A stretch of 64,000 bases of DNA from an uncultured Verrucomicrobiaceae bacterium (GCA_964500675.1 CAZCNY010000007.1:81582-145581), one strand, 5' to 3'. Counted from the stretch's first letter, positions 6,289 through 64,000 are shown. Notes: generated by a model from the letters alone, not told the origin. Translations and numbers: made by a program.

Positions 6289-6306
6289 ATAAGTGCGAGC
6301 ATTGAG

Positions 6307-8051: not shown

Positions 8052-8057
8052 GAAAGC

Positions 8058-26333: not shown

Positions 26334-26377
26334 GATGAGTCTCTTTAATTTCAAAAAATCTTTTCGAAAAAAATAAA

Positions 26378-42799: not shown

Positions 42800-44044
42800 C
42801 TAATTCATGTTGGCAATCACAGCGGCGCCGAACTCCGAGCATGTCAGTGTCGCCGCATCGGGAATGAGCCGCGCGAGATCGTATGTCACCGTTTTTGCCG
42901 CGATCGCGCCATCCAAACCGCGTTGAATAAGATCGGCCGCTTCGCACCATTGCAGATAGCGCAATAGCATTTCCCCCGCGAGAATCAGCGCGCTCGGATT
43001 TACTTTGTCCTGGCCGGCATATTGCGGCGCGGTGCCGTGGATGGCTTCAAAGACCGCGACATCATCGCCGAGATTTGCCACCGCCGAACGGCCGACTGCA
43101 CCGGCCTGCGCCGTGAGCGCATCGGCCAAATAGTCTCCATTTAAATTCAGCGTGGCGATAACGCTGAATTGTTCCGGGCGTGTGAGCATCTGCTGAAACA
43201 TCGCATCGGCGACGATATCGTTGATGACGATTTGACGCTGCGTGCGCGGGTTGGTGAATGCGAGCCACGGCGTATTGTCGAGCGGTTGCGCACCGAATTC
43301 TTCCGCGGCTAATTCATAACCCCACTGCCGAAATGCATCCTCGGTGAATTTCATCGCATCGCCTTTATGCACGAGCGTCACGCTTGGCAGGTCGTGATCG
43401 ATGGCGTATTGAATGGCGCGTCGTATCAAGCGCTTTGAACCTTCGGCAGAAACATTTTTGATGCCGATGGCGCAATTTTCGTCGAAGCGAATTTTTTTAA
43501 CGCCCATCTCTTCGAGCAGGAATTGCAAAACCTTTTCCGCTTGCGGCGAACCCGCTTTCCACTCGATACCCGAGTAAACGTCCTCGGAATTTTCGCGAAA
43601 AATCACCATGTCGATTTTTTGCGGTTCGCGCACCGGTGCGGGCGAGCCGCGCAGCCAGCGCACGCGTCGCTGCGCGACGTAAAGATCGAACTCCTGGCGC
43701 AGTGCGATATTGAGCGAACGAAAACCTTCGCCGATCGGAGTCGTGAGCGGACCTTTGATGACGATGCCGTATTCCTTGATGGCGTCGAGCGTCGCGGTAG
43801 GGTACCACTCGCCCGCAAACATATCGGCGGCTTTTTCTCCGCTGTAAATTTCGAGCCACGCAATGTGGCGTTTACCGCCGTAAGCGCGCGCAACGGCGGC
43901 GTCGATCACGCTGCGCATCACCGGAGCGATGTCGACACCGATGCCGTCGCCCTCGATGAATGGCACGATCGGATGATCGGGCACATGCAGCGAGCGGTCG
44001 GCGTCGATCGCAATTTTTTCGCCGCGTTGAGTCGCTTGTGTCAT
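42800..44044 (-). CDS. icd: NADP-dependent isocitrate dehydrogenase (E. coli-type homodimeric)
   Basis: ORF 42800..44269 trimmed to [11 protein letters not shown]... at 44044 (GGGAG RBS). 414 aa. [21 protein letters not shown] retains the Ser that AceK phosphorylates in E. coli (S113 context IRSLN). Confidence 0.93.
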
Positions 44045-44087
44045 CTTATCGCTCCCAACATCGTATGTTGTTGACATCGGCGGCCAA

Positions 44088-46268
44088 TTAACTTTTTGCC
44101 AATTGCGCTTTGCGTTCGCGACGGCGCGCGTGCAATACCGGCTCGGTGTAACCGTTCGGTTGCTCGCGGCCTTTGAACACCAAATCGCACGCCGCTTGAA
44201 ACGCGATGCCGTCGAAATTCGGCGCCATTTTCGTGTACAGCGCGTCGCCGGCGTTTTGCTCGTCGACAATGACCGCCATGCGTTGCATGGTTTCTAGCAC
44301 TTGTTCGCGCGTGCAAATCCCGTGATGCAGCCAGTTCGCGATGTGCTGACTCGAAATGCGCAGCGTCGCGCGATCTTCCATCAACCCGATATTGTTGATG
44401 TCGGGTACTTTCGAGCAGCCGACGCCCTGATCGATCCAGCGTACGACATAACCGAGAATGCCCTGCGCGTTGTTGTCGAGCTCCTGTTGAATTTCCGCGG
44501 CCGACAATTTTTTATTGTCCGCCGGCACATGTTTATTCAGCAAAGGCAGTGTAAGAATGTCGTCGAGTGCGGCGCGCGAACGCGCGAGCAATTCTTCCTG
44601 GCGCTGCGCGACATTGACTTGATGGTAGTGCATGGCGTGCAGCGTTGCCGCGGTCGGCGAAGGCACCCACGCGGTATTCGCGCCGGCTTGCGGATGCCCG
44701 ATTTTTTGTTTGAGCATTTCCGCCATAAGGTCGGGCATCGCCCACATGCCTTTACCGATTTGCGCGCGCTGGCGCAGACCGCATTGCAGACCGATATCGA
44801 CGTTCCACTGCTCGTACGCCTGAATCCATGTTTCCTGTTTCATCGCATTTTTGCGCACCATCGCACCGGCTTCCATGCTGGTGTGAATTTCATCGCCAGT
44901 ACGATCGAGAAAGCCTGTGTTGATGAAGACGACGCGCTGTTTCGCCACGCGAATGCATTCTTTCAGGTTCACCGTGGTGCGGCGCTCTTCGTCCATGATG
45001 CCGACTTTGAGCGTATTGCGCGCGAGACCGAGGATGTTTTCGATCGCACTGAATAAGTCACAGGTAAATGCGACTTCTTTGGGTCCATGCATTTTCGGTT
45101 TGACGATGTAGATCGAACCTGTGCGCGAATTTTTTATACGACCGCCGCCTTTCAAATCGTGCATGGCGATCAGAGAGGTAATCGCGCCGTCGAGAATGCC
45201 TTCGGGCACTTCGTTGCCGGCGCTGTCGAGCACCGCGCTTGTCGTCATCAAATGGCCGACGTTGCGCACGAATAGCAAGCTGCGGCCCGGCAACGTGAGA
45301 TTGCCGCCATCGAGCGCGGTGAATGTGCGATCGGGGCTGAGCGTGCGCGTGAGCGTTTTGCCGTCTTTCACAAAACTTTCGCTGAGATCGCCTTGCATGA
45401 GGCCGAGCCAATTGGCGTAGGCGAGCGCTTTGTCCTCGCCATCGACCGCAGCGATCGAGTCTTCCAAATCCTGAATCGTGGTGAGCGCGGATTCGAGCAC
45501 GATGTCTTTGATGCCCGCTGCATCGGTGCTGCCGATCGAATGTGCGCGATCGATTTGGATTTCGATATGCAGACCGTTGTGACGCAACAGAATCGACGAT
45601 GGCGCATGCGCTTCGCCGTTGTAGCCGACCAGTGCATGACGTTGTTGCAGCGGCGCAGTCTTGCCGCTTTTCAGCGCGATCTGCAATTCACCGTCAATGA
45701 TGACGTATTGCGTTGCATCGCTGTGGCTGCCGTCTTTCAGCGGGACGCTGCGATCGAGAAATTCGCGTGCAAACGCGATCACGCGTGCGCCGCGTTTTGG
45801 ATCGTAGCCCTTCGCGCTTTCCGAAGGGTCGCGCGCAATCGCATCGGTGCCATAGAGCGCATCGTACAAACTGCCCCAGCGCGCATTCGCCGCGTTCAAT
45901 GCGTAACGCGCGTTCATCACGGGCACGACGAGCTGCGGGCCGGCGAGAATTGCGATTTCAGAATCGACATTCTGCGTTTCGATCTGAAAATCCGGGCCTT
46001 CGGGCAACAGGTAGCCGATGTCGCGGAGAAATTGCCGATAAGTAACGGGATCGAACGGGTTCGATCGATGCCAGTTATCGATCTGCGCTTGCAGCGCATC
46101 GCGTTCCGCGAGCAGCGCGCGATTGCGCGGCGCGAACTCGGCAAGCAGCGCGGCAAAACCGCGCCAGAATTGATCGGCAGCGATGCCAGTGCCGTGCGCG
46201 GCGCGTTGCACGAGCGCGTGCAGCGGCGCAGAAATTTTTAAACCTTCGACCGGGATGTAATTGCTCAT
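44088..46268 (-). CDS. glcB: malate synthase G
   Basis: 726 aa, with size and blocks (e.g. [37 protein letters not shown]) typical of GlcB. Confidence 0.95.
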
Positions 46269-46328
46269 AATCGTCGTCCTGCTTGAAAAAAAACGGAGTG
46301 AAAAATTGTCGTCTAAAAAATCGTCTAA

Positions 46329-48134
46329 TCAAAACCCGCTGTCATTGGCATGTTGCACAAAGCGCTGTGCCTTGCGGTAGGGGAACACATCGTGCACCAC
46401 GCCCGCATTGATCTGACGCTGCATATCGATCCAGAAGTCGGGGTCGTAGATTTCCGGGTGCAAACGATCGAGCGCTTGCCGCGCGCGCGGATTCCCCGCA
46501 AAGAAGCGCCGAAACTCTTCCGGGAAAATATCGTTGACGGCGACGCCGTATGTGGGTGTTCCCGCCAGTATATCGGCATCGTCGCGCGGCGGTGGAATGC
46601 GGCGAAAACGGCATTCGGTGAGCGGGCACAATTCGTCGTAGTCGTAGAACACGACGCGGCCGTGGCGCGTCACACCGAAATTCTTGAGCAGCATATCGCC
46701 TGGAAAAATATTGGCGGCGGCGAGTTGCTTGATGGCGTTGCCGTACTCGTCCATCACGCTGTCGATCTCGTCATCGACGGCGTGCTGCAAATACAAATTC
46801 AACGGCGTCATGCGGCGTTCGATATAGATGTGTTTGATGATCAGCGCCCGGCCGTGAATGACGATCTGCGACGCGCATTCGCGCTGTAATTCCGCCAGCA
46901 ACTCGGGCGAAAAGCGCGCGAGCGGAAACGCGAGATTGCGAAATTCGTGCATGTCGGCCATGCGGCCAGCGCGCTCGGAGCGCTTTACAAAATTGTATTT
47001 TTCCTTGACCTGTTCGCGCGTCGTTTCCTTGGGAGGCGCGAAGCGATCCTTGATGATTTTGTAAACGTAATCAAATGAGGGCAGGGTGAACACTTCCATC
47101 ACCATGCCTTTGATACCCGGTGCAATCACGTACTGATCGGTTGAATGCCGCGTGTGTGCGACGGCGGCGCGATAAAATTCGCTTTTAGCGTGCTTGACGA
47201 AACCGAGTGCGGTGTACAGCTCGAAAATTTCCTTGTTCGGCATCAGCCCTTTGAGAAAGCGCACGTATTGCGACGGCACCGGAATATCGACCATGAAGTA
47301 TGTGCGCGTGAAGCTGAACAAAATCGAGAGATCGTCGGCGCTGAATAATGCGGTGTCGACGAAGATGCCGCCCTGCTCGTTGTTGAGCAGCGCTAAAACA
47401 AATGGGCAGCTGCGATCGCCGCAGTAAATTTTTCCGATCAGGTAGCCGGCTTTGTTGCGATAAAAAATGGAATCGAGCACTTCGATTTGCGTGGCATGCG
47501 GGGCGAGCATGCCGCGCGCTTCGTCGCTGCGCTCCGCGGCCGCAATGATGCATTGAATATCGCGCTCGATATTCTCGAAACCGATGCTGAAATCGATGTC
47601 GCACAAAATTTCGCGAAGCAGCGCCGGCACGCTGTCTTTACGTTGCTCATCATCGTTGCTTTGCCCGTCGTCATTGCATTGCCCATCGCCGTTGTATTGC
47701 TCATCGTCGCTGCATTGATAGGTTTTCAGTACGCGCTCAAAACTTGCGGGCGTTGACAGGGGTTGTTCGAGGGCGAACGAATTGAGCCCCGATACTTTTT
47801 CGTGACCGAATACGAAGCAGTAACACGAGTTAAAAAACGTCTGCGCGATTTCGGCGTTGCTGTGTGTGAGCACGATGTCGGCATATTCGCGTTTTGCCGC
47901 GCGCCATAAATAGCGATCGTGCAAGTGTTCGCCGGCGATGACGCCGATCGCGGTGGCGGTGTGGTTGACCTTGCGGCGATAAATGGTAAGCCGATCGGCC
48001 ATTGCGGTATGAATCGCGTGCCATTCGGCGCGTTCGAAGCGCGCTTGCGCACCCAGCGTGATGTTCTGCCATTCGGCGAACATGCTGTCGAAACCGTTGA
48101 GGATGGCGCGCGCGAAGCGGCGGGCGATGGACAT
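46329..48134 (-). CDS. aceK: isocitrate dehydrogenase kinase/phosphatase
   Basis: ORF 46329..48170 trimmed to MSIARRFARAILNGFDSMFAEW... at 48134. 601 aa, collinear with AceK through the C-terminal kinase domain. Confidence 0.9.
   Translation of the reverse strand: MSIARRFARAILNGFDSMFAEWQNITLGAQARFERAEWHAIHTAMADRLTIYRRKVNHTATAIGVIAGEHLHDRYLWRAAKREYADIVLTHSNAEIAQTFFNSCYCFVFGHEKVSGLNSFALEQPLSTPASFERVLKTYQCSDDEQYNGDGQCNDDGQSNDDEQRKDSVPALLREILCDIDFSIGFENIERDIQCIIAAAERSDEARGMLAPHATQIEVLDSIFYRNKAGYLIGKIYCGDRSCPFVLALLNNEQGGIFVDTALFSADDLSILFSFTRTYFMVDIPVPSQYVRFLKGLMPNKEIFELYTALGFVKHAKSEFYRAAVAHTRHSTDQYVIAPGIKGMVMEVFTLPSFDYVYKIIKDRFAPPKETTREQVKEKYNFVKRSERAGRMADMHEFRNLAFPLARFSPELLAELQRECASQIVIHGRALIIKHIYIERRMTPLNLYLQHAVDDEIDSVMDEYGNAIKQLAAANIFPGDMLLKNFGVTRHGRVVFYDYDELCPLTECRFRRIPPPRDDADILAGTPTYGVAVNDIFPEEFRRFFAGNPRARQALDRLHPEIYDPDFWIDMQRQINAGVVHDVFPYRKAQRFVQHANDSGF
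47646..47717 (-). repeat. four imperfect 18-nt tandem repeats inside aceK
   Basis: Plus strand: CTCATCATCGTTGCTTTG / CCCGTCGTCATTGCATTG / CCCATCGCCGTTGTATTG / CTCATCGTCGCTGCATTG. In the gene frame this encodes QCSDDE-QYNGDG-QCNDDG-QSNDDE. Confidence 0.9.
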
Positions 48135-48195
48135 GGTATTAACCGGTCTGGTGTAAAAAGTATGGAGCACTCATAATCGTTACAAGGAGTCACTT

Positions 48196-48213
48196 CCCCT
48201 TTAATTAAAGGGG
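48196..48213. promoter_or_regulatory. perfect 18-bp palindrome in the aceK/LysR divergent region
   Basis: CCCCTTTAATTAAAGGGG lies 24 nt upstream of the LysR ATG (48237) and 62 nt from the aceK ATG (48134). Confidence 0.4.
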
Positions 48214-48236
48214 GAATCAAATAATTGAGCCAGCCT

Positions 48237-49187
48237 ATGAATCTTGCCCGCGTCGATCTCAATCTGCTCGTCTACCTTGATGTGCTGCTGCGCGAATGCA
48301 GCGTCACGCGTGCGGCCGAGCAGCTTAACATCACGCAGCCCGCGATGAGCAACGGTCTGCGCCGCTTGCGCGATCTGTTCGACGATCCGCTGCTGATTCG
48401 CACCAGCGAGGGCATGCGCCCGACCGCGCGCGCGCTCGAATTGCAGCCGCAATTGCGCGAGGTGCTGAGCAAGCTTGAAGTTGTCGTGCAGTCGAGCAAC
48501 TTTGAGCCGCGGCAGAGCGAGCAGTTGTTTCGCATCATGGCCAGCGATTACGCCGAGTCGACCTTGCTGCCGCATTTGCTCGACGCCCTTCGCGACAGCG
48601 CACCCGGTATCGCGATCGATATTCTGACGCCGTCCGATGTCACGTTTCTCGATCTCGAAAAAGGCAAGATCGATCTCGCGATCAACCGCTTCGATCATTT
48701 GCCCAAATCGTTGCATCATACGACGCTGTGGCGCGATACGTTTTCGTGCTTGCTCAGCGCCGGCAATCCGATACTCGATGATTTTACACTCGATGCGTAT
48801 TTGCAGGCAGCGCATATTTGGGTGAGCAAAACCGGCATGGGCGTGGGTACGGGCATGACACCGCGCGATACGCTGCGGCTCGGTTGGGTCGACGAGGCGC
48901 TCGCCGAACTTGGCAAGCAGCGGCGCATTCGCATTTTCACGCGCCATTACCAGGTTGCCGCGCTGCTCGCGCAACAACCCGATTTGATTGCGACGCTGCC
49001 GACACAAGCGGCGCTGCTGCAAAGCGATAACCCGCGTCTCGCAATTCGCCGCCCGCCGTTTCCGATCGTGCCGATTGAGTTGAAGATGGCATGGAGCGCA
49101 CTACTGCAACACAACAACGCGCATATCTGGTTGCGCCGGAAAATTCAGGATGTCGCGCGCGAGTTGCTCACGAAAAATAAATCCTGA
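48237..49187 (+). CDS. LysR-family transcriptional regulator
   Basis: ORF 48225 (TTG) trimmed to ATG 48237. MNLARVDLNLLVYLDVLLRECSVTRAAEQLNITQPAMSNGLRRLR is a canonical LysR HTH. Confidence 0.9.
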   Translation: MNLARVDLNLLVYLDVLLRECSVTRAAEQLNITQPAMSNGLRRLRDLFDDPLLIRTSEGMRPTARALELQPQLREVLSKLEVVVQSSNFEPRQSEQLFRIMASDYAESTLLPHLLDALRDSAPGIAIDILTPSDVTFLDLEKGKIDLAINRFDHLPKSLHHTTLWRDTFSCLLSAGNPILDDFTLDAYLQAAHIWVSKTGMGVGTGMTPRDTLRLGWVDEALAELGKQRRIRIFTRHYQVAALLAQQPDLIATLPTQAALLQSDNPRLAIRRPPFPIVPIELKMAWSALLQHNNAHIWLRRKIQDVARELLTKNKS

Positions 49188-49215
49188 AAATATCGGCTGT
49201 GTTGAGACCGCGGAT

Positions 49216-50346
49216 TTACGCGGCCATCTCCTCTCGCTCTTCCAGATCGCGCTGTGCAACCGGTGCGATGAACTGGAATTGGTAACCCAGCGCCGTCAGC
49301 TCACGTTGCATCTGTTGCGCGTTTTGATTACCGGCAGGGCAGCTGTAAGCGAGCAATTGCTGCGGATATTCGCGATGAATTGCCGCGGCGAATTGTCGCG
49401 CTTGTTCGAGATCGAGTTGAGCCGTTTCGAGCCAGAGCACATCGGCATATGGCGCATATGCGAGGCCGCGCGCAATCGCTTGCTCGATACCGCCGCGCAC
49501 TGCGTAAAAGCCTTCCTCGGTGCGCTCGCCGGTCATGAACGATTGATCGCGCGGATCGCAATCGGAGCTCAACAGGTTCGTTGTGTTGGCCGTGGTGCGC
49601 GCGACGATTAATGTCGGCACATCCTCAACATCGGCCGCGAGGCGCGCCGCATCCAATTTCTGCGCGACTTCGCGTGTCGGCATCAACACGTTGTCCATGT
49701 GAGCACGGCCGATCTGGCCGCGATGTTTGGTCGAGGTGAGCTGATCGTCGAAATGCACGCCCGCAGCACCGGCGCGAATCATGTTTTTCATGAGCTCGAA
49801 TGCGTTGAGCGCACTGCCGCTGTGAGCTTCGGCATCCGCTACGATCGGCGCGAAATAATCGATGAAGTCAGCATCGCCGGCGCAAGCGCTGGCTTTCCAC
49901 TGTATTTGGTCGGCGCGCTCGAACGCATTATTGATACGGCGCACGAGCGAGGGCACTGAATTGATCGCGTAGAGCGATTGGTCGGGGCGAATCGTTTCCG
50001 CACTGCTCTGATCAGCGCTTGCATGCGAACCGGAAAGATAAATGGCCTGCGCGCCGGCTCTGACCTGCTGTACTGCCTGCTCTCCGGTCAGAGCGGTTTG
50101 CGCATGGATGCAAGCCTGGTCCGTCGCGAGCAATTCCCAGAGCTTTTCCGCGCCGAGTTTGGCGATGGTGTTGTCGCGTTTGATCGAACCGCGCAGCCGC
50201 ACCACGTCTGCGGCGGTATAGGTCCGAGCGACGCCGTGCCAACGCGGATTTTCGGCCCAATCGGCCTCGATGCGGGCAGTTTCAGCGCGGCGATCGTATT
50301 TTCCCAGAGTGTGTTGAGCGTGCTGAGTGCATTGCGTGGTATTCAT
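49216..50346 (-). CDS. isocitrate lyase homologue lacking the catalytic KKCGH signature and C-terminal lid (pseudoenzyme or diverged ICL/PEP-mutase superfamily member)
   Basis: ORF 49216..50394 trimmed to ATG 50346 (GGAGAA RBS). 376 aa, strongly collinear with AceA/Icl1 (PDQSLY..NSVP, RADQIQW, IVADAEA, NAFELMK, VHFDDQ, VART, SDCDP, GERT, YAPYAD). However, it reads LTSTKHRGQIGRAH where ICLs have L.S.KKCGH.GGK, SGSH for SGWQ, AYSCPAGNQ for AYNCSPSFNW and FIAPVA for FITLAG. It ends ~55 aa early. Confidence 0.8.
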   Translation of the reverse strand: MNTTQCTQHAQHTLGKYDRRAETARIEADWAENPRWHGVARTYTAADVVRLRGSIKRDNTIAKLGAEKLWELLATDQACIHAQTALTGEQAVQQVRAGAQAIYLSGSHASADQSSAETIRPDQSLYAINSVPSLVRRINNAFERADQIQWKASACAGDADFIDYFAPIVADAEAHSGSALNAFELMKNMIRAGAAGVHFDDQLTSTKHRGQIGRAHMDNVLMPTREVAQKLDAARLAADVEDVPTLIVARTTANTTNLLSSDCDPRDQSFMTGERTEEGFYAVRGGIEQAIARGLAYAPYADVLWLETAQLDLEQARQFAAAIHREYPQQLLAYSCPAGNQNAQQMQRELTALGYQFQFIAPVAQRDLEEREEMAA

Positions 50347-50484
50347 GGCACTTCTCCAACCGTATGTCCGGTGCAAGAGGCAGCGTGTGAGCATCTGCGA
50401 TGAGGCATATTAGGGGCGGGTTGATGCATTAGCCGAATTTATTATTTTTATCCCTTGTATTTATCGCATGAATAGTTGGGCGGG

Positions 50485-55214: not shown

Positions 55215-55551
55215 ATTTTCGGGTGTTCGGAAAGCGATGATGAAAGCGGAGGCTTGATGGCGTCGGTCGAAACGTTCCACTCGCCATCATTCCCAGCGCG
55301 CCAGAGTTGACAAAAGCTCGGGCATTGCCAGAGATAAAGAATTCTTGCTCCGTGTACCCTAAACTCGCCAAATTGATTGCCGACGACTGAAAGGGAAAGC
55401 CGTGAGCGCCAGCCAGCGGGTTTGAGACCGTTGGCGTTGGTACTGCCGCCATGCCGGTCATGGGCGCAGCGACATTATCCCTACTCAAAGCCGAAACGAA
55501 ACTACAATACACGATAAAAATACCGGGAGGAGTTGAATGACGCAAAAACAA
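55192..55551 (-). pseudogene. N-terminal remnant of a paralogue of the 56253..57785 hydrolase-like gene (frameshifted, 3'-truncated)
   Basis: INLASLGYTEQEFFISGNARAF aligns with FDLGSVGYQQSEYFISGKARSY of the intact gene. The next segment matches only in another frame (NDGEWNV versus TDGKWSV) before returning (SLRFHHRFP versus FKTRFLIYRP). The ORF then ends inside the CHAD gene 3' end. Confidence 0.65.
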
Positions 55552-56040
55552 TCCCAGTCACCGAGAAGCGAGTCGACCAATCGGGTAGATCGTCTTGGTC
55601 ATCTCATCAGCTTACTTGAGCGCATTCTGCGCAAAGAACTATCGGATGCGTTGGCACCGATGCAATTAACACTGCAGCAATATGCTGCTCTGCAGATATT
55701 GAACAACAACGATAAGATGTCGAACGCTAAGCTAGCTAAACGATCTTTTATGACACCACAATCGACGAATGAAATGGTCAATACAATGGAGGCTAAATCA
55801 CTCATCGTTCGGCAGCCGAACGAAAACCACGGGCGCATTATTCACATATTGATCAGTAGAAAAGGTAAAAAAACGTTGCAGAAAGCCGATGCAGCCGTGC
55901 TGGAAGTCGAAAAGCGCATGCTGGAGCACATCCCGCAGAATCATCGCATTAAATTTCGTGATCAGCTTATCGGCTGTATCATCGCTTTAAAAGCTTCTGT
56001 TTTACAGGACTTTCCGCTTAACGAAAACTTGGATACTTGA
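55537..56040 (+). CDS. MarR-family transcriptional regulator
   Basis: 167 aa. LTLQQYAALQILNNNDKMSNAKLAKRSFMTPQSTNEMVNTMEAKSLIVRQPNENHGR is a winged-helix MarR pattern. A counted 60-nt line gives 40% G+C. Confidence 0.85.
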   Translation: MTQKQSQSPRSESTNRVDRLGHLISLLERILRKELSDALAPMQLTLQQYAALQILNNNDKMSNAKLAKRSFMTPQSTNEMVNTMEAKSLIVRQPNENHGRIIHILISRKGKKTLQKADAAVLEVEKRMLEHIPQNHRIKFRDQLIGCIIALKASVLQDFPLNENLDT

Positions 56041-56061
56041 GTTAGTTATTTTTGAACTAAC
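56041..56061 (+). other. AT-rich hairpin immediately after the marR stop
   Basis: GTTAGTT-atttttg-AACTAAC (7-bp perfect stem) with no T-run. Could be a weak terminator or a protein-binding site. Confidence 0.3.
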
Positions 56062-56125
56062 TCTATAAATAGTGGCAAGAAATCGCATCCCCGCACTAGC
56101 CATCTCCACTTCATCTTGCGTTTTA

Positions 56126-56142
56126 TATCAGGCTGCCTGATA
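56126..56142. promoter_or_regulatory. 17-bp palindrome, candidate MarR operator
   Basis: TATCAGGC-T-GCCTGATA lies between marR and the hydrolase-like gene, 111 nt upstream of ATG 56253. Confidence 0.4.
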
Positions 56143-56252
56143 CTTGCTGCGCCATGTGACATCTGGCGCTCGCCGAGATCGATTACTACCGATCATTTAA
56201 GATAAAAAATAAGAGAGCGCATTAAGCAATACGAACAGACAGGACATCAAAA

Positions 56253-57785
56253 ATGCCAATAATAAGATCGACACCTAAGCAGATGGTGAGGGGCGCGCAG
56301 TTTCTATCTATTTTCCAACTGTTGATCGTCGTCAGCGTAGGATCATTTATGAGCGCCTGTAATTCCGGTAGCAGCGGCCATTCTTCTACAGTCACGCCAA
56401 ATCCCGTCATCGAAGGGCCAATTGCTGGCACGCCTACATTACTCGGCACCACCATGTTCGATCTTGGCTCTGTTGGCTATCAGCAGAGCGAATATTTTAT
56501 TTCCGGCAAAGCGCGCAGCTATACCAGCAACTCGACGTTAAATACCGATGGCAAATGGTCGGTGCGTGTTGCCGACACAGCGGATTTTAAAACGCGCTTT
56601 CTTATTTATCGACCGATCGATGCCGCTGCGTTCAATGGCACAGTGATATTCGAATGGCTCAATGTAAGCGGTGGTCCCGACACGGCTGCTGAATGGATGG
56701 TGTCGCACAACGAGCTGATCCGAAAGGGCTACGTGTGGATCGGTATTTCGGCACAAAGCGCCGGTATCCAAGGCGGTGGCGTGAATTTTTCGGGGCTACA
56801 GCTGGATTTAAAAACGATAAATGCAGCGCGTTATGGCACGCTCACGCATCCGGGCGATAAATACGCTTTCGATATATTTTCGCAAGCCGCACAAGCAGTT
56901 CTCCATCCCAAGGATATCGATCCGTTAGCGGGTTTACACGTGCAGCGCGCATTCGCTGTTGGCGAATCGCAATCGGCCGATTTTCTGGTGACCTACGTGA
57001 ATGCGATCGCAAAAGACGCGAAATTATTCGACGGTTATTTTATTCACAGTCGGTTTCACGGCACCGTCGGTTTGAATCCCCCAACCTTTACTTCGGAAGG
57101 CATCGATTTTCTCGCGCGGCCTAGCGTGCTCGTGCGCGATGATCTGGATGTGCCTGTCATGATGTTTCAGACTGAAACGGATGTTTTGATGTTTGGATCG
57201 TATTCCGAGCGTCAGCCCGACAGCGCGCATTTCAGGCTTTGGGAGGTGGCTGGTACCGCGCATGCGGATATCTATTCGGCGCAGACCAGCCTGACTGATA
57301 AGGGTAATGATCCAAATGTTGCTGCGGTTATTGAGCAGAGTTTTCCGCTCTATGGTTGCACCATTCCGGTCAATTCGGGACCACAGCATTTTGTCGCTAG
57401 CGCAGCTATTGCCGCACTCGATAATTGGGTGCGCAATGGGGTGGCACCAGCGTATGCAGATCGGCTTGAAGTTGCGGGAAATCCTGCGGCATTTGTTAAG
57501 GACAGCGTCGGCAATGTACTGGGCGGTATCCGTACGCCATATGTTGATGTGCCCGTTGCGATATTGTCTGGTGAAGGTCAGACGGGAAATTTGCTCTGCA
57601 CGCTGTTTGGTACCACGCAGCTATTCGACAGCACGCAACTGATGAGTTTGTATCCCGATCACGCCACCTTTGTTTCTGAGATAAATACATCGGTTGACAG
57701 TGCCGTGAGGGAAAGATTTTTGCTGCAGCCTGATGGTGATCTCATCAAAACGTGGGCGCAATCATCCAATATCGGCACGCATTGA
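56253..57785 (+). CDS. alpha/beta-hydrolase-like lipoprotein of unknown function
   Basis: 510 aa with a signal peptide ending FMSAC (lipobox-like) and a nucleophile-elbow-like AVGESQSADF. I recall this large family only as hydrolase-domain proteins of unknown substrate. Confidence 0.65.
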   Translation: MPIIRSTPKQMVRGAQFLSIFQLLIVVSVGSFMSACNSGSSGHSSTVTPNPVIEGPIAGTPTLLGTTMFDLGSVGYQQSEYFISGKARSYTSNSTLNTDGKWSVRVADTADFKTRFLIYRPIDAAAFNGTVIFEWLNVSGGPDTAAEWMVSHNELIRKGYVWIGISAQSAGIQGGGVNFSGLQLDLKTINAARYGTLTHPGDKYAFDIFSQAAQAVLHPKDIDPLAGLHVQRAFAVGESQSADFLVTYVNAIAKDAKLFDGYFIHSRFHGTVGLNPPTFTSEGIDFLARPSVLVRDDLDVPVMMFQTETDVLMFGSYSERQPDSAHFRLWEVAGTAHADIYSAQTSLTDKGNDPNVAAVIEQSFPLYGCTIPVNSGPQHFVASAAIAALDNWVRNGVAPAYADRLEVAGNPAAFVKDSVGNVLGGIRTPYVDVPVAILSGEGQTGNLLCTLFGTTQLFDSTQLMSLYPDHATFVSEINTSVDSAVRERFLLQPDGDLIKTWAQSSNIGTH

Positions 57786-58344
57786 TTTTTCGCAGCTGCA
57801 ACATAAAAATATTTCTTTAAAATGTGCCTGCGGTTCCGTGTCAATAATTAAAGGATATAGCATTGATCTTTCAGAATATAATTGTTCTTGGCCTACTAAC
57901 CTGTTTCAGCTCGGAGAAATTATTTCTTGAAAATTATAGGTAAGTCGCTTTAGTGAAATAGAGCATGTCGGAAGTACCACGGTATCCTTGTATTAAAGCG
58001 TAATAGGCGTGACGTCATCAGTTCTGCGGATCGCCCTTTTTATAATGGGTAATGTCCGCTTCTATTCCACAAGCTGACATTGAGTGCGAAAAGGTTGAAA
58101 GACCGCAACGGGCCGACGGTGAATGTCCATGATTCTCAATTGTGCGATCCGCGAGTAACCGCTTTCCCACTTGCGGTATTTTCAACAGCGCCGGATGCAG
58201 AACGGTTTTGCCGGCGAGGTCCAATTTTAATCACGCATTGTGGATGCTCGCATTTTCCTAACGCCATGCGCGGAAATTTTAAAAGTGTGTGCGCTATGAA
58301 GACGGCTGGCTTGGAGATGGCTTGATTTCGTTAATCGAAAATTG

Positions 58345-59082
58345 CTAATTGCCGCGATGAGGTCGAGCGCATCCGAACAAAATCAAATCACTCAACTGCC
58401 GCGAAACTTCGGAAAGGTCGCCGGTTTTTCCCGTCATGACACGATCCATTGCGATCGCGAAAAACATGCCGAAGCTCGCCAGTTCAACCAAGTCCGGGTC
58501 CATCGTATCCTTGATCACATTGCGCACGAGTTCCGTGCGCGCTTTGATCAGCGGTTGGATTTGTTCCCGATACAGTTTTTTACCCAGCGTCTGATCCGAG
58601 AATAATGCCTGAGCCAATAACGGATAAATCTCAATCATATTCTCCAGATGTTTTTGCATGCCCGTGTTGATGAGTTTCGACAAACTTTCGGGCGAATCGG
58701 CCGCCTCATAGACCTGGTAGCGCTCGCGCACGCCTTCGAGCAGCGCAACCAGCGGCTGCAAAACGGCGGCGGCGAACAAATCTTCCTTCGATTTGAAATG
58801 GCCGAACAGCGTTGCTTGATTGATGCCGGCGGCCTGCGCGAGATCGCGGGTGCGCGAGCCTCGTAAGCCGGAGCGTGCGAAGACTTCCTTAGCCGCTTCG
58901 AGAATCAGTTGTCTGCGTTCTTCGGCGGGCAAATAGTGCCGGCGTTTTTCCGATGCCGATGGTTTGCGGGAATTTTCAGCCGTCGATTGTGCTTTTGTCT
59001 TTTTCGGCGGATGTTTTTTTGCCGTGGGTTTTTCTCGATTCATTGCTGCTGATACCTGAGTGCTTGAATTAACCGGCGCCAT
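58345..59082 (-). CDS. TetR-family transcriptional regulator with basic N-terminal extension
   Basis: ORF 58345..59427 trimmed to ATG 59082 (alternative 59043). HTH is RTRDLAQAAGINQATLFGHFKSKEDLF. The 5' part of the listed ORF is antisense to the CAR start. Confidence 0.85.
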   Translation of the reverse strand: MAPVNSSTQVSAAMNREKPTAKKHPPKKTKAQSTAENSRKPSASEKRRHYLPAEERRQLILEAAKEVFARSGLRGSRTRDLAQAAGINQATLFGHFKSKEDLFAAAVLQPLVALLEGVRERYQVYEAADSPESLSKLINTGMQKHLENMIEIYPLLAQALFSDQTLGKKLYREQIQPLIKARTELVRNVIKDTMDPDLVELASFGMFFAIAMDRVMTGKTGDLSEVSRQLSDLILFGCARPHRGN

Positions 59083-59153
59083 AAAGCCAACGGTTTGCGA
59101 TCTGCGCTTGAGCGTAAGTATGGAGAAGATGCGGCGGCAAACCAACCGCATAG

Positions 59154-59184
59154 TTGGAATTGGGTTGGTTGGTATGGTATAAAT
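59154..59184 (+). promoter_or_regulatory. candidate sigma70 promoter of the CAR gene
   Basis: TTGGAA (59154-59159), an 18-nt spacer, then TATAAAT (59178-59184), ~35 nt upstream of ATG 59219. Confidence 0.35.
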
Positions 59185-59198
59185 CAACCAGTTGGTTG
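59185..59198. promoter_or_regulatory. inverted repeat, candidate TetR operator
   Basis: CAACCA-GT-TGGTTG lies directly after the -10-like element. A second pair, AACCAACC (59140-59147) / GGTTGGTT (59163-59170), lies upstream. Confidence 0.4.
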
Positions 59199-59218
59199 GA
59201 TTATCGCTGAGGCTGCCC

Positions 59219-62200
59219 ATGACCACGACCACCAGGACTACTACTGCCACGACCACTAGCGCGAAGACTGCGACCGAGGATACCGATCCGCGCGTGAAGT
59301 TGGCGCAGCGCATGAAAATGTTCAGCGCCGAAGATGCGCAGTTCCGCGCCGCATTTCCACTCCAAGAGGTCAGCGAAGCGAAGCGGCAACCGGGATTGCG
59401 ACTCGCCCAGATCGTGCAAATCGTCATGGAAGGTTATGCCGAGCGACCGGCGCTCGGGCAGCGCGCACGCGAGCTCGTCACCGATCCCGCCAACGGGCGC
59501 AAAACGCTCAGGCTCTTGCCGAAATTCGAAACCATCAGTTATCGGGATTTGTGGGCGCGGTCGCGTGCGGTCGCCAGCGCATGGCATCGCGACCCCAAAA
59601 ATCCGCTGCGCGCGGGCGATTTCGTTTGCATTCTGGGTTTCACGACCCCGGACTACGCGGCGATTTTGTTGGCGAATATTTCGCTCGGCGCGGTCAATGT
59701 GCCGCTGCAAACGAGCGCCTCGGTGCGCAATCACGTCGATATCATGGCCGAAACCGAAGCGCGCATTTTGGCCGCGAGCATCGATTACCTCGATGCCGCG
59801 GTGAACGCCGTGCTTGCGAGCGCGGTACCGCAGCGCCTGGTGGTTTTTGATTACGATGCGCGCGACGACGATCAGCGCGAAAAATGGCAGAACGCACATA
59901 AGCGATTGGCGGATGCGAACAGCGCGATCGTTGTCGATACGCTCGATGCAAGCGCCGATCGCGGCATGGCGCTACCGTTAGAGCCGCTGTTTGTGCCGGC
60001 AGCCGACGAAGATCCGCTGGCGTGGTTGTTTTACACCTCCGGTTCTACGGGTACGCCGAAAGGGGCGATCTTCACCGAGAAACTCGCGATCACGACTTGG
60101 CTCAGCGATGTGCCGATGCCGGTGATCACGCTGAGTTTCATGCCGATGGCGCACTTGGTCGGCAACGGTTATCTGCTGCTCGCGCTGGCGAACGGAGGCA
60201 CGAGTTATTGTTCGCCGAGAGCCGATTTGTCGACATTGTTCGAGGATTTTTCGCTGGCTCGCCCCACGATGAGTTCGTTAGTGCCGCGCGTTTGCGAATT
60301 GTTTTATCACCACTATCTCAGTGAGGTCGAAAGGCTCGGCGCAAGCCTCGCCGCTGAAATCAAAAAAGAAATGCGAGAGAAGACGATGGGCGGCCGCTTG
60401 TTATCGGTCGGTTGTGGTTCGGCTTCGCTCGCGCCGGAAACTTATGCGTTCATGGAATCGATGCTCGATATGCACATGGCCATCGGTTATTCCTCCACGG
60501 AAATCGCAGGCGGCACCGTGCTCGTCGATTGGAAGGTGCAGCGTCCGCCCGTGATTGATTACAAACTCGACGATGTACCCGAATTAGGGTATTTCAAAAC
60601 CGACAAACCGTATCCGCGCGGCGAGCTGTTGGTGAAATCCGATCGTTTCATGGGCGGCTATTACAAGCAGCCCGGTCTCACGGCGGACAAGTTCGACGCC
60701 GATGGTTTTTATCGGACCGGCGACGTCATGGCCGAGCGCGGGCCAGACCATCTGACGTTTGTCGATCGGCGCAACAATGTCATCAAGCTCTCGCAAGGCG
60801 AATTCGTCGCGATCTCGCGGCTGGAGGCGTTGTATTCGCACAGCCCGGAGATTCGACAGATTTACATTTATGGCACGAGCGAGCGCGCGTTTCTGCTCGC
60901 CGTCATCGTGCCTTCCGAAGAACTCGTCGCCGGGCTCGGGCGCGATGGTGCGGGGCGCGACTCAGTGAAGCTCGCGCTGCGCCATTCGCTGAAATGGATC
61001 GCCGATCAAGAAAATCTCAATGGCTACGAAATTCCGCGCGATTTTTTGATCGAGACCGAGCCATTCAGTTTGAAGAACGGACTTCTCACCGAAGTCGGCA
61101 AGCATCAGCGTCCGAAACTGAAGGAGCGTTACGACGAGCAGTTGGAGCAACTGTACACTCACATTGCGCGGGAGCAGCTCGATGAATTGCGCGCGCTGCG
61201 CTCCGGCGGCGCCGATCGACCGACGCTGGAAACCGTGACGCGCGCATTGCAGGCGGTTCTCGGTGTCGCCGCGACGGATGTAAGCCCCGAGGTGAAATAC
61301 GGCGAATTGGGAGGAGACTCGCTGTCGGCGCTCGAATTTTCGAAATTGCTGGAAGATATTTTCGACATCGAAGTGCCCGTCGGCGTCATTATCAATCCCG
61401 CCGGCAACGTGCGAGGTATCGCGGACTACATCGAGGCCGAGCGCAATTCCAGTGCGAAGCGTCCGACGTTTGCGCGCGTGCACGGCAAGCACAGCACCGT
61501 GGTGTCCGCCGCCGAACTCACGCTCGATAAGTTCATCGATCAGCGGATTCTCTCTAACGCATTAACACTGCCGCGATCCGGTGAATCCGTTCGTACGGTC
61601 CTGTTGACCGGCGCCACGGGTTATCTCGGCCGCTTCCTCGCCCTGTCGTGGTTGGAGCAAATGGCTAAAACCGGCGGTCAGCTCATGCTTATTGTGCGAT
61701 CTAACGATTTATCTGAGGCGCGACGGCGCATCGAAGGCGCGCTCGCTACCGATCCCGAATTGACGAAACATTTTCAAGCGCTGGCCGCTGATCATCTCGA
61801 AGTGATAGCAGGCGATCTCGGCGCGCCAAATCTCGGCTTGGATGCAGCAACCTGGGACCGGCTCGCCGAAACGGTCGACGCGATCGTGCACTCGGGTGCG
61901 CACGTCAATCACGTGTTGCCTTACAACCAATTGTTCGCGGCAAATGTGGCCGGCACGGCGGAATTGATCCGGCTCGCGATCACGAGCCGGCGCAAACGCA
62001 TTCACTACATCTCGACGCTGGGCGTGAGCGCGTTGTCGACTCGTCTGGTCGATGAAGACAGCGATATTCGCGATGCCGTGCCCGTCTGCGAAATTAACGC
62101 TAGCTATGCTAACGGCTACGGCATCAGCAAATGGGCGAGCGAAGTTCTGCTGCGCGAAGCGTTCGATTTGTGCGAATTGCCGATCGATGTTTTCCGCCCC

Positions 62201-62764
62201 GGCATGATTCTCGCGCACAGCCGTTACCAGGGGCAGTTGAACGTGCCCGATATGTTCACACGGTTGCTGTTCAGTCTGGCTGTCACCGGCGTGGCACCGG
62301 CGAGTTTTTACGCACAGGATGTGTCGGCGGGGCGGCCGCGCGCGCGCTACGAAGGTTTTGCCGCCGATTTTCTCGCCGCTGCGATCGTCGCGATCGGCAG
62401 CCGGGATACGCAGGGGTTTCACACATACAATCTGTCGAGCCCGCACGAGGAGGGCGTCGGGCTCGATGATTTCGTCGATTGGCTCGTCGATGCCGGTTGC
62501 AACATCGAACGCGTCGCTAAGTACGACGAGTGGCTGACGCGATTCGAAACCGCGATGCAGGCGCTGCCTGAAGCGCAGAAGCAGCAATCATTGCTCGCGC
62601 TGCTCGGACCGTATCGAAATCCGCAGATGGCCGGTGCAAAATCGCCGTTGACGAGTGAGCGGTTCTGCGCAGCGGCGACAGCAGCCGGTTTCAATATTCC
62701 CCGCTTGTCGGCGGCGCTGATCACCAAGTACGTTGCCGACTTGCGGCATCTTGGCTTGTTGTAA
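59219..62764 (+). CDS. carboxylic acid reductase (adenylation - PCP - thioester reductase; FadD9/CAR type)
   Basis: ORF 59192 (TTG) trimmed to ATG 59219. Has A-domain motifs LFYTSGSTGTPKGA and YRTGDV, carrier motif LGGDSLSA, reductase Rossmann LLTGATGYLGRFL and YGISKWASE (YxxxK). Overall 1181 aa, like Nocardia/Mycobacterium CARs. Confidence 0.9.
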   Translation: MTTTTRTTTATTTSAKTATEDTDPRVKLAQRMKMFSAEDAQFRAAFPLQEVSEAKRQPGLRLAQIVQIVMEGYAERPALGQRARELVTDPANGRKTLRLLPKFETISYRDLWARSRAVASAWHRDPKNPLRAGDFVCILGFTTPDYAAILLANISLGAVNVPLQTSASVRNHVDIMAETEARILAASIDYLDAAVNAVLASAVPQRLVVFDYDARDDDQREKWQNAHKRLADANSAIVVDTLDASADRGMALPLEPLFVPAADEDPLAWLFYTSGSTGTPKGAIFTEKLAITTWLSDVPMPVITLSFMPMAHLVGNGYLLLALANGGTSYCSPRADLSTLFEDFSLARPTMSSLVPRVCELFYHHYLSEVERLGASLAAEIKKEMREKTMGGRLLSVGCGSASLAPETYAFMESMLDMHMAIGYSSTEIAGGTVLVDWKVQRPPVIDYKLDDVPELGYFKTDKPYPRGELLVKSDRFMGGYYKQPGLTADKFDADGFYRTGDVMAERGPDHLTFVDRRNNVIKLSQGEFVAISRLEALYSHSPEIRQIYIYGTSERAFLLAVIVPSEELVAGLGRDGAGRDSVKLALRHSLKWIADQENLNGYEIPRDFLIETEPFSLKNGLLTEVGKHQRPKLKERYDEQLEQLYTHIAREQLDELRALRSGGADRPTLETVTRALQAVLGVAATDVSPEVKYGELGGDSLSALEFSKLLEDIFDIEVPVGVIINPAGNVRGIADYIEAERNSSAKRPTFARVHGKHSTVVSAAELTLDKFIDQRILSNALTLPRSGESVRTVLLTGATGYLGRFLALSWLEQMAKTGGQLMLIVRSNDLSEARRRIEGALATDPELTKHFQALAADHLEVIAGDLGAPNLGLDAATWDRLAETVDAIVHSGAHVNHVLPYNQLFAANVAGTAELIRLAITSRRKRIHYISTLGVSALSTRLVDEDSDIRDAVPVCEINASYANGYGISKWASEVLLREAFDLCELPIDVFRPGMILAHSRYQGQLNVPDMFTRLLFSLAVTGVAPASFYAQDVSAGRPRARYEGFAADFLAAAIVAIGSRDTQGFHTYNLSSPHEEGVGLDDFVDWLVDAGCNIERVAKYDEWLTRFETAMQALPEAQKQQSLLALLGPYRNPQMAGAKSPLTSERFCAAATAAGFNIPRLSAALITKYVADLRHLGLL

Positions 62765-62800
62765 CCGACAAATGTAGCAGTCAATCAGAAGGAAAAATTC

Positions 62801-64000
62801 TTGGATCGAATAGATTGGATTCGCGGCGATTCGATGGGCTTGGAGATTCCGGCCCACAGCGAATCGTTGCGAGCGGGCGGGGCCGAATTTCTTACTCATG
62901 CATTTCATGCCGCCGGTTCGCTGCCAACGGATAACCGCGTTATGCGCATTGCGGAGTGCAAGGAGGTTGCGGGCGGTAGCACTGGGCGTAAATTGCTGCT
63001 CGCGGTGGAATACGAAAAATCGTCGCCGAATTTGCACACTGATCTGTTCGTGAAATTCTCGCGCGATTTCGACGATGAAATTCGCGATCAAGCGAAAAGT
63101 CAAATGGAGCTGGAAGTGCTGTTTGCGTTGTTGTCGCGCAGCCCCGAATTTCCGATAGCCGTGCCGATTTGTTATTTCTCCGATTATCACCGCGAGTCCG
63201 GCACCGGAATTCTGATCACGCAACGCATTACGTATGACGCGAATGGTGTCGAGCCGCACTACGCAAAATGTCTTGATTATCATATGTCGGATCAGCTCGG
63301 GCATTACCAGGCGCTGATCAGGGCGCTGGCGCGTTTGGCGGGAACACATAAAGCCGGACGTTTGCCGGATATTGTCGAAAAATATTTTCCGTTCGACCAC
63401 GCCAGGCTGGTTGTGAGCAAGCGCGTCGCGTATACGCCCGAGCAAATCAGTGAGAGAGTGTTTGCATACGCGGAATTTGCAAAAAAATATCCGCAACTGT
63501 TGCCGGCAAACATTCGTTCCGATGAGTTTTTCGCGCGCTTAACAGCAGAAGCGCCGCGCTTTCAGGCATTGATGGCGGTTGGTCATCAGGTTTTGCAAAG
63601 CAGACACGACATGATCGCGCTCTGTCATTGGAATGCGCACATCGATAATGCGTGGTTTTGGCGCAATAGCGAAGGCCGGCTGCAATGCGGTCTCATGGAT
63701 TGGGGCAATGTGAGCCAAATGAATGTGGCAATGGCGATTTGGGGTTGCCTGAGCGGCGCTGAACTCACACTCTGGGACGAGCATTTGGACGAGCTGCTGA
63801 CATTATTTATTCGCGAATTTCAACACTGCGGCGGCCCCGCGCTCGATTTCGCCGAATTGAAATTGCATTTAACTATCTACGTGGCGGCGATGGGTTTGAA
63901 CTGGATGCTGGACTCGACGCGTTTGTTGTCGAAGATTCCCGATTTGGCAACAGCGGAAAATCGCCTCGACGCGCGTATTCAAGTCAACGAGCGCGCACGC
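62801..64000 (+). CDS. phosphotransferase-family protein (APH/choline-kinase-like fold), 3' end outside window
   Basis: Absent from the ORF track because it is open at the window end. My translation from TTG 62801 (AAGGA RBS; alternative ATG 62834) gives 400 in-frame codons, including LCHWNAHIDNAWFW (catalytic-loop HxxxxDN) and GLMDWGNV (DxG-like metal site). Confidence 0.75.
   Translation, partial: MDRIDWIRGDSMGLEIPAHSESLRAGGAEFLTHAFHAAGSLPTDNRVMRIAECKEVAGGSTGRKLLLAVEYEKSSPNLHTDLFVKFSRDFDDEIRDQAKSQMELEVLFALLSRSPEFPIAVPICYFSDYHRESGTGILITQRITYDANGVEPHYAKCLDYHMSDQLGHYQALIRALARLAGTHKAGRLPDIVEKYFPFDHARLVVSKRVAYTPEQISERVFAYAEFAKKYPQLLPANIRSDEFFARLTAEAPRFQALMAVGHQVLQSRHDMIALCHWNAHIDNAWFWRNSEGRLQCGLMDWGNVSQMNVAMAIWGCLSGAELTLWDEHLDELLTLFIREFQHCGGPALDFAELKLHLTIYVAAMGLNWMLDSTRLLSKIPDLATAENRLDARIQVNERAR

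Follow-up and report, generated by a model that had tools for sequence, protein, structure and literature searches.

What does a carboxylic acid reductase (CAR) do for its host, and what is contributed by a kinase-like gene placed directly behind it? These questions are raised by a locus at the end of a stretch of 64,000 nucleotides from an uncultured Verrucomicrobiaceae bacterium (GCA_964500675.1 CAZCNY010000007.1:81582-145581; the whole stretch is referred to as the window), which consists of a TetR-family regulator gene, a CAR gene and the gene of a 429-residue kinase-like protein that we call K429, followed beyond the end of the window by a crotonase gene. The reading that we prefer, with a probability of about one half, is that a single TetR-repressed operon, read as that of a proteobacterium and probably of a gammaproteobacterium, would act on a lipophilic carboxylic acid and on its reduced or thioester derivatives. 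The features of the locus are as follows, in window coordinates.

58345-59043, minus strand: TetR-family regulator gene, 232 aa, Pfam TetR_N at residues 47-93 (E 4.9e-15), in agreement with the public gene call
59138-59176: second, weaker inverted repeat I2 (with direct repeat D1), same CAACC/GGTTG half-sites as the candidate operator
59179-59204: candidate TetR operator, inverted repeat I1, an imperfect 12+12 palindrome, ATAAATCAACCA gt TGGTTGGATTAT
59182-59201: 20-bp core of the candidate operator, AATCAACCAGTTGGTTGGAT, directly after TATAAA
59219-62764, plus strand: CAR gene, 1181 aa, ATG start at 59219, stop ending at 62764; adenylation domain from about residue 102, peptidyl carrier protein (PCP) domain at about 672-738 and the thioester reductase domain at about 793-1181
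61232-61432, plus strand: coding region of the PCP domain (Pfam PP-binding, residues 672-738), with the phosphopantetheine Ser within LGGDSLSAL
62789-62793, plus strand: AAGGA, ribosome-binding site of K429, 7 nt before its start codon
62801-64000, plus strand: K429, first 400 codons of 429; the gene runs 90 nt past the window and its full length was taken from contig L001
63626-63649, plus strand: K429 catalytic-loop codons H276-W-N278-A-H-I-D282-N283, with Asn278 at the catalytic Asp position of HxDxxxxN
63698-63700, plus strand: K429 Asp300 codon in a DWG motif, equivalent of the metal-binding Asp of DFG, invariant and aligned to the D of DWE

The three genes lie where the initial annotation had placed them, as the open reading frames (ORFs) show, and these three proteins are also those of the public gene calls, which come from an independent contig. 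The TetR gene is indeed divergent from the CAR gene, and the 175-nt intergenic region between them contains the conserved palindromic candidate operator. This palindrome overlaps the TATAAA box, which resembles a -10 element, and its end lies 15 nt 5' of the CAR start codon. Its core, AAYCAACCAKTTGGTTGRWT, is also present in the divergent intergenic regions of four related loci, namely L082, L084, L086 and the CAR-less L168, and orthologues of the regulator, 50-81% identical, flank the K429 cassette in L002, L004, L037, L082, L084 and L086. A TetR_N helix-turn-helix, a divergent target and a palindrome kept in four related loci are what is expected of a TetR repressor, and we infer that the regulator binds the palindrome. 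The weaker repeat I2 is possibly an auxiliary operator.

Between the end of the CAR stop codon at 62764 and the TTG start of K429 at 62801 there are 36 nt, and K429 has an AAGGA site of its own; both points had been described before and agree with the coordinates found here. The TTG start is supported by the N-termini of K429 homologues. In a simple scan, no terminator-like site was found between the two genes, and farther downstream terminator-like matches occurred only inside the crotonase and short-chain dehydrogenase/reductase (SDR) genes, where they were fewer than in shuffled controls. CAR and K429 are thus very probably co-transcribed, as judged from this layout, and the earlier remark that the downstream gene is not part of the textbook CAR system was correct.

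The operon does not stop at the window's end. Contig L001 corresponds to window positions 58079-64000 with 0 mismatches in 5922 nt and extends the locus: next comes the gene of a 250-aa crotonase, the ATG of which overlaps the TGA of K429 (ATGA), and 86 nt later that of a 304-aa SDR of the PRK06197 type (retinol-dehydrogenase-type; 353 bits against a cutoff of 268). Beyond the SDR gene are a LysR gene and a convergent gene for a membrane protein. Three tandem copies of about 20 nt fill the 86 nt that separate the SDR gene from the crotonase gene (TAATTCATTCAACAAYACTC...; L001 6770-6835), which could be a regulatory element or an array of binding sites.

The CAR itself can be assigned with little difficulty. 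In its translation, Pfam domains follow each other as AMP-binding (102-482), PP-binding (672-738) and NAD_binding_4 (796-1035), TIGR01746 (NCBIfam) matches the reductase domain, and the NCBIfam equivalog model NF041592, "carboxylic acid reductase", is matched from residue 30 to residue 1181 of 1181 with a score of 1602.4 bits, the cutoff being 1300. Solved CARs are aligned end to end, with 1390 bits for 5msc from Nocardia iowensis, 1222 bits for 5msp from Segniliparus rugosus and 1194 bits for 5mso from Mycobacterium marinum. The adenylation motifs YTSGSTGTPKGA, GYSSTE and YRTGD can be read in the translation, and the carrier motif LGGDSLSAL and the reductase motifs TGATGYLG (GxxGxxG) and YGISK (YxxxK) are aligned to the same motifs of the solved enzymes. 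The hallmark motifs that had been ascribed to a 1181-aa enzyme with adenylation, carrier and reductase domains are therefore all present according to Pfam, NF041592 and the solved-CAR alignments, and the window enzyme is, on sequence grounds, a complete and genuine type-I (FadD9/Nocardia-type) CAR. Homology predicts that the enzyme adenylates an acid, transfers it to the phosphopantetheinyl arm and releases the aldehyde with NADPH.

Compared with the type I bacterial CARs of N. iowensis, M. marinum, S. rugosus and Mycobacterium tuberculosis (FadD9), the window enzyme has the same architecture and the same length, but it differs by a Thr-rich N-terminal extension, by its TetR-controlled operon with K429, crotonase and SDR, by nearest named relatives that are almost all Proteobacteria, and by the absence of a phosphopantetheinyl transferase (PPTase) gene seen nearby. 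The extension is a low-complexity segment covering residues 2-14 (window 59222-59260, MTTTTRTTTATTTS...); the solved CARs, which align from residue 24 onward, have no such segment. As to the PPTase, by which CARs (EC 1.2.1.30) are activated before they reduce acids to aldehydes with ATP and NADPH, the initial annotation had seen none in the window, and neither a motif scan of the window nor Pfam scans of 33 window ORFs, which together make a limited test, revealed one. The idea that K429 is a hidden PPTase substitute was rejected, its fold being the wrong one. Taken alone, this CAR is an ordinary, further member of a known and already annotated enzyme kind.

K429 is a different matter. The single sequence finds nothing in Pfam or NCBIfam, even with the threshold set at E 10, and no sequence in the Protein Data Bank (PDB) was matched either by K429 alone or by its family as a profile (two profiles tried). 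An AlphaFold (AF2) model built from 28 homologues has a pLDDT of 89.7 and a pTM of 0.89, and a Foldseek search with it gave 69 PDB matches at E <= 0.001. Of the best 50, nearly every one is a small-molecule kinase or phosphotransferase with the bilobal kinase-like fold, among them PsiK, the N-acetylhexosamine kinase NahK, the macrolide phosphotransferase Mph(2'), the spectinomycin phosphotransferase APH(9), 25-hydroxysteroid kinase, choline kinase and homoserine kinase II, with E-values of 1e-8 to 1e-6, TM-scores of 0.4-0.5 and identities of 10-16%. No SelO-like or SidJ-like fold was found among these 50 matches. K429 is therefore phosphotransferase-like at the level of the predicted fold only.

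The family to which K429 belongs is large: clustering at 50% identity gives 630 clusters, and members are present in 422 species-level genomes, which belong to Gamma- and Alphaproteobacteria and to Actinomycetota, including mycobacteria. Across 47 diverse members, down to 25% identity, no variation is seen at K85, D128, K156, D159, H276, N278, D282, N283, G297 and D300, and E105 is conserved to 90% or more. Of these, K85, E105, N283 and D300 fit the beta3 Lys, the alphaC Glu, the metal-binding Asn and the DFG-type Asp of kinases, in positions that fit the predicted strands and helices, and a Gly-rich loop is conserved as well. The conservation of this loop and of Lys85, Glu105, Asn283 and Asp300 makes it probable that K429 binds ATP and Mg.

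The catalytic loop has the form HxNxxxDN in 67 of 67 family representatives examined, and its spacing from H to N is that of the HxDxxxxN (Brenner) motif. An iterative hidden Markov model search found only two APH proteins within the retrieved loci, too few for a profile, and the ACAD10/11-type APH family was taken instead. In an hhalign comparison with the profile of these bacterial phosphotransferases, IALCHWNAHIDN...LMDWG of the K429 family stands opposite VSLVHGDFRLDN...LVDWE, and N278 falls opposite the D of HGDFRLDN; this is a local alignment of 35 columns with low overall probability, whose register agrees with the H-to-N spacing. An hhalign run of the K429 family profile against a single APH(3')-IIa sequence gave a meaningless N-terminal match and was discarded. 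By its place in the sequence, Asn278 occupies the catalytic Asp position, and because the catalytic Asp is replaced there, the standard mechanism of alcohol kinases cannot be assumed for K429.

The description of K429 as an APH-like kinase thus holds for the fold, as indicated by AF2 and Foldseek, but not for the sequence, which matches no Pfam, NCBIfam or PDB entry and has Asn for the catalytic Asp. With the APH, choline-kinase and EcKL kinases of the Pfam clan PKinase, K429 shares the bilobal fold, the Gly-rich loop, Lys85, Glu105, Asn283 and Asp300, whereas it is about 80-100 residues longer, has extra helices between the lobes, does not match PF01636, PF02958 or PF01633 and carries the invariant Asn. 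Weak Pfam matches appear in 9 of 47 relatives, six to EcKL and three to APH, the best at 2e-5. Many relatives of 500-800 aa, about 30% identical, have the same HxNxxxDN loop, and a few long multidomain ones (P0131, P0197, P0226 and P0192/P0395; 778-1758 aa, one with an NHL repeat) are possibly of eukaryotic origin.

The constant partner of K429 in its clade is the crotonase. All eight crotonase orthologues directly follow K429, overlapping it or within about 100 nt, and they were found only there. The crotonase of the operon matches Pfam ECH_1/ECH_2, and its NCBIfam matches, the best of which are the PRK06190 hydratase and the PaaG isomerase, are all below cutoff. A canonical enoyl-CoA hydratase uses two catalytic glutamates, Glu144 and Glu164 in the rat enzyme. 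In the K429-linked crotonase the first is present, in GGLELVL, and the second is His, in FADTH(A/S)KFDL, in 8 of 8 orthologues, so that it departs from the canonical hydratase; other enoyl-CoA hydratase genes in the same loci keep both Glu (...FPEGKFG). Single acid/base crotonases such as the PaaG-type isomerases are the closest comparison: the first Glu is kept by the K429-linked enzyme, which differs by its His at the second position.

How often, then, does this pair occur together with a CAR? CAR and K429 are adjacent in at least six arrangements and three orientations, on independent contigs. The two genes are co-directional in the window, L082 and L083; they are divergent in L084/L085 and L086/L087, where AKR-TetR-CAR (AKR, aldo-keto reductase) faces K429-crotonase(-SDR); and they are convergent in L169, whose K429 homologue is only 50% identical. 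CAR and K429 identities roughly co-vary across these loci. In four loci from metagenome-assembled genomes (MAGs) of Actinomycetota, a CAR lies 4-8 kb from K429. An SDR or AKR accompanies CAR in every CAR-K429 arrangement except L083 and L169, the latter having an SDR gene about 8 kb away and an FMN reductase nearby. In L083 there is no crotonase, and at 11398-12156 an SDR is detected by tblastn with 72% identity, of which only fragments of 56-68 aa are called; this looks like a decaying copy of the operon tail.

In a neighbour-joining tree of K429, CAR-linked and CAR-less cassettes interleave within one clade. We read the locus as an old K429-crotonase(-AKR/SDR) cassette under TetR control, with CAR as an addition that recurs but can be dispensed with. 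The wider neighbourhood of the family points to lipid metabolism. In mycobacteria, the K429 homologue is on the same strand as, and directly downstream of, a fatty-acid-CoA ligase gene (L042, L049, L051, L052, L059, L063, L064 and L077); the ligase of L049, which was the one tested, reaches 1037 bits in the FadD8 equivalog model against a cutoff of 875, and the linkage of K429 with fadD8 is found in several Mycobacterium and Mycolicibacterium species. In other actinomycetes, SDRs are directly upstream of K429 homologues. CaiB-type CoA-transferases, acyl-CoA dehydrogenases, P450s, KstD-like proteins, a Rieske oxygenase and aldo-keto reductases are further neighbours, and in L168 and L084 the genes beside the cassette encode a canonical enoyl-CoA hydratase, a 4HBT thioesterase and three acyl-CoA dehydrogenases. 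These acyl-thioester and redox neighbours point to a hydroxylated or oxo fatty-acyl (CoA) substrate.

From the gene identities, the operon structure and the conserved operator described above, we infer the following chemistry. The TetR protein would bind the palindrome and let go when an acid or acyl ligand appears; CAR would make the aldehyde from the acid, and the SDR, or the AKR in relatives, would interconvert this aldehyde and the alcohol. K429 and the His-variant crotonase might form an older, self-standing two-enzyme module for which CAR would be an optional entry enzyme. K429 would most likely act on a hydroxylated fatty-acyl intermediate, to which it would transfer phosphate or some other portion of ATP, and the crotonase might next eliminate or isomerise the intermediate so activated. 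Because the usual catalytic Asp is Asn278, the chemistry of K429 must use another base, for which Asp282, Asp159 and Lys156 are candidates, or an acceptor that may need none.

LvaA of the levulinate operon is a hydroxyl kinase that works by such an activate-then-eliminate logic. The same logic applies to the kinase domains of ACAD10/ACAD11 (PMC12440821, PMC11342911) and to 25-hydroxysteroid kinase (PMC8449060; PDB 9fsg), which is also among the Foldseek matches noted above. Like these enzymes, K429 sits among acyl-CoA ligase, dehydrogenase and hydratase genes, and it is tightly coupled to another enzyme by which the activated group could be taken off. However, K429 is outside those families, having no GQSNPT-type APH signature, no PF01636 match and no catalytic Asp, and unlike ACAD10/11 and LvaA its partner is a crotonase and not an acyl-CoA dehydrogenase, which sets it apart from their group. 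The likeness would thus be one of pathway logic only. A more far-reaching version of the proposal is that K429 founds an unrecognised HxNxxxDN family devoid of the catalytic Asp, that together with the His-variant crotonase it carries out a new ATP-dependent fatty-acyl transformation, and that the form linked to CAR under one TetR operator is a physiological CAR pathway. We hold this joint version to be tentative and rather doubtful, and the transformation that is part of it, for example phosphorylation or adenylylation followed by crotonase-catalysed elimination, is to be regarded with the same reserve.

Several observations weigh against the operon reading that we prefer. None of the 80 genome loci retrieved with K429 had an adjacent CAR, and none of the 80 metagenome loci retrieved with CAR (49-76% identity) contained K429, so that the coupling is a minority arrangement and K429 is not a CAR-specific partner. 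The closest relatives of K429 (73-78% identical; L002/L168, L003, L004 and L037) are in AKR-TetR | K429-crotonase cassettes lacking CAR. The crotonase implies a CoA thioester substrate, yet there is no CoA ligase in the window operon and CAR makes no CoA esters. Moreover, Asp-to-Asn at the catalytic position kills related kinases experimentally (PDB 8i82 is a D189N example), and for this reason K429 may not be a kinase at all. It is possible, if in our view doubtful, that CAR was simply inserted in or next to an older TetR | K429-crotonase cassette, with which it shares the promoter and nothing of its product's metabolism; similarly doubtful is the corollary that the substrates of K429 and crotonase are acyl-CoA intermediates from the catabolism of fatty acids, terpenoids or steroid-like compounds. 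The two counts of zero in 80 speak for such an incidental juxtaposition, as do the CAR-less cassettes, which carry the same operator and the same crotonase, the acyl-CoA dehydrogenase, hydratase and thioesterase genes beside the L168 and L084 cassettes, and the actinomycete homologues that follow FadD8 or SDR/CoA-transferase genes. But a recurrence in at least six arrangements and three orientations, including an arrangement whose K429 is only 50% identical, is hard to obtain by chance; in the divergent arrangements, a single operator would serve both CAR and K429; and in the four Actinomycetota MAG loci, CAR is again within 4-8 kb of K429.

Two other explanations concern K429 itself, and both seem unlikely to us. 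The alcohol kinase that the initial annotation had envisaged, acting on the fatty or aromatic alcohol produced by CAR and SDR/AKR and giving an alkyl phosphate as end product or activated intermediate, would agree with the predicted kinase fold, with the CAR-K429 gene order and with the presence of SDR/AKR beside CAR in all arrangements but L083, where the SDR is a remnant, and L169. It stands as one possibility only and an improbable one, since all the family members examined have Asn in place of the catalytic base Asp, the tightly coupled crotonase is left unexplained and K429 mostly occurs without CAR. Alternatively, K429 might be no phosphotransferase but a pseudokinase acting as scaffold or regulator, or an enzyme of another chemistry, such as adenylylation or the formation of an acyl-phosphate or acyl-adenylate on a carboxylate; SelO is a kinase-fold enzyme doing adenylylation. 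The loop that is invariantly HxNxxxDN while nucleotide- and metal-binding residues are kept, the additional family-specific invariants D128, K156 and D159, and the repeated position of K429 homologues directly after adenylate-forming enzymes (CAR here, FadD8 in mycobacteria) would fit such a protein, which we consider of low probability: the closest folds are all ordinary small-molecule kinases, the 50 top structure matches include nothing SelO-like or SidJ-like, and a dead scaffold would hardly keep each of the ATP-site residues so strongly conserved.

The origin of the CAR is less clearly actinobacterial than had been stated. The type-I assignment stands, but the claim of a mainly actinobacterial, horizontally derived enzyme is weakened by its relatives and by its composition. 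The top 120 CAR homologues are 61-77% identical, and those with a name are Alpha- or Gammaproteobacteria (Steroidobacteraceae, Novosphingobium, Haliea, Mangrovimicrobium, Rhodospirillaceae), bar one labelled Verrucomicrobia; several close homologues already carry the NCBI name carboxylic acid reductase. CARs of Actinomycetota MAGs are about 53-61% identical to the window CAR. A populated proteobacterial CAR clade thus exists, as far as sequences tell, and an old transfer of CAR between phyla is plausible. The locus has a GC content of 0.53-0.59 and a GC content at third codon positions (GC3) of 0.60-0.70, and the corresponding values of the window and its housekeeping genes are 0.55 and 0.64-0.68; because both match the surroundings, there is no compositional sign of a recent transfer, and recent horizontal acquisition was rejected as unsupported. 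A plasmid search gave no evidence for a plasmid-borne locus and turned up only K429 paralogues of about 31% identity, annotated "hypothetical protein" and in a different context, on Sphingobium/Novosphingobium megaplasmids. In the literature, we found no relevant report on proteobacterial CAR phylogeny, on FadD9 with a phosphotransferase, or on a CAR gene cluster with a TetR regulator.

The remainder of the window contains the following features.

5596-6288: Fno-like F420 oxidoreductase gene, part of the F420 cluster (5596-11235)
6307-7074: CofE gene, F420 cluster
7071-8051: CofD gene, F420 cluster
8058-8801: CofC gene, F420 cluster
8668-11235: FbiC-like radical-SAM fusion gene, 855 aa, F420 cluster
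11332-14735, minus strand: KdpD sensor kinase (904 aa) and KdpE-like response regulator genes, next to the F420 cluster
42800-50394, minus strand: glyoxylate-shunt block with isocitrate dehydrogenase, malate synthase G, AceK kinase/phosphatase and isocitrate lyase genes
55537-56040: MarR gene, preceding the Abhydrolase_10 gene
56253-57785: Abhydrolase_10 protein gene, 510 aa, GC3 0.53, in a low-GC stretch

The window contains a complete cluster for coenzyme F420 biosynthesis (5596-11235), which is unusual for a proteobacterium-like genome and fits several "actinobacterial-type" traits of the window. A common aldehyde theme with a LuxA-like monooxygenase had also been proposed and was not supported. 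The Bac_luciferase ORF at 23353-24411 is a generic luciferase-like monooxygenase (LLM), with 115 bits against the 600-bit cutoff for luciferase alpha; a second luciferase-like ORF at 25425-26354 passes TIGR03619, the F420-dependent LLM model, with 229 bits against a cutoff of 167; and both are 33-36 kb from the CAR gene, in a window that has its own F420 cluster. Just upstream of the TetR gene, a stretch at 56000-58000 has a GC content of 0.48, against a window mean of 0.55, and may be a separately acquired piece.

CARs are workhorse biocatalysts, and to our knowledge the natural substrates and roles of the bacterial enzymes are poorly defined. If the module described here is an ordinary lipid-catabolic accessory unrelated to CAR, our finding shrinks to a routine proteobacterial CAR. 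On the preferred reading, a CAR under one operator with a conserved kinase-like/crotonase pair and an aldehyde/alcohol reductase would be a concrete candidate for a physiological pathway. The K429-crotonase pair, whose known folds occur here in an uncharacterised variant, is of greater interest than the CAR, and the large K429 family is outside every Pfam and NCBIfam model. Its chemistry could turn out to be of a type new to the kinase-like superfamily, and it could provide an annotation for the gene beside fadD8 in mycobacteria.

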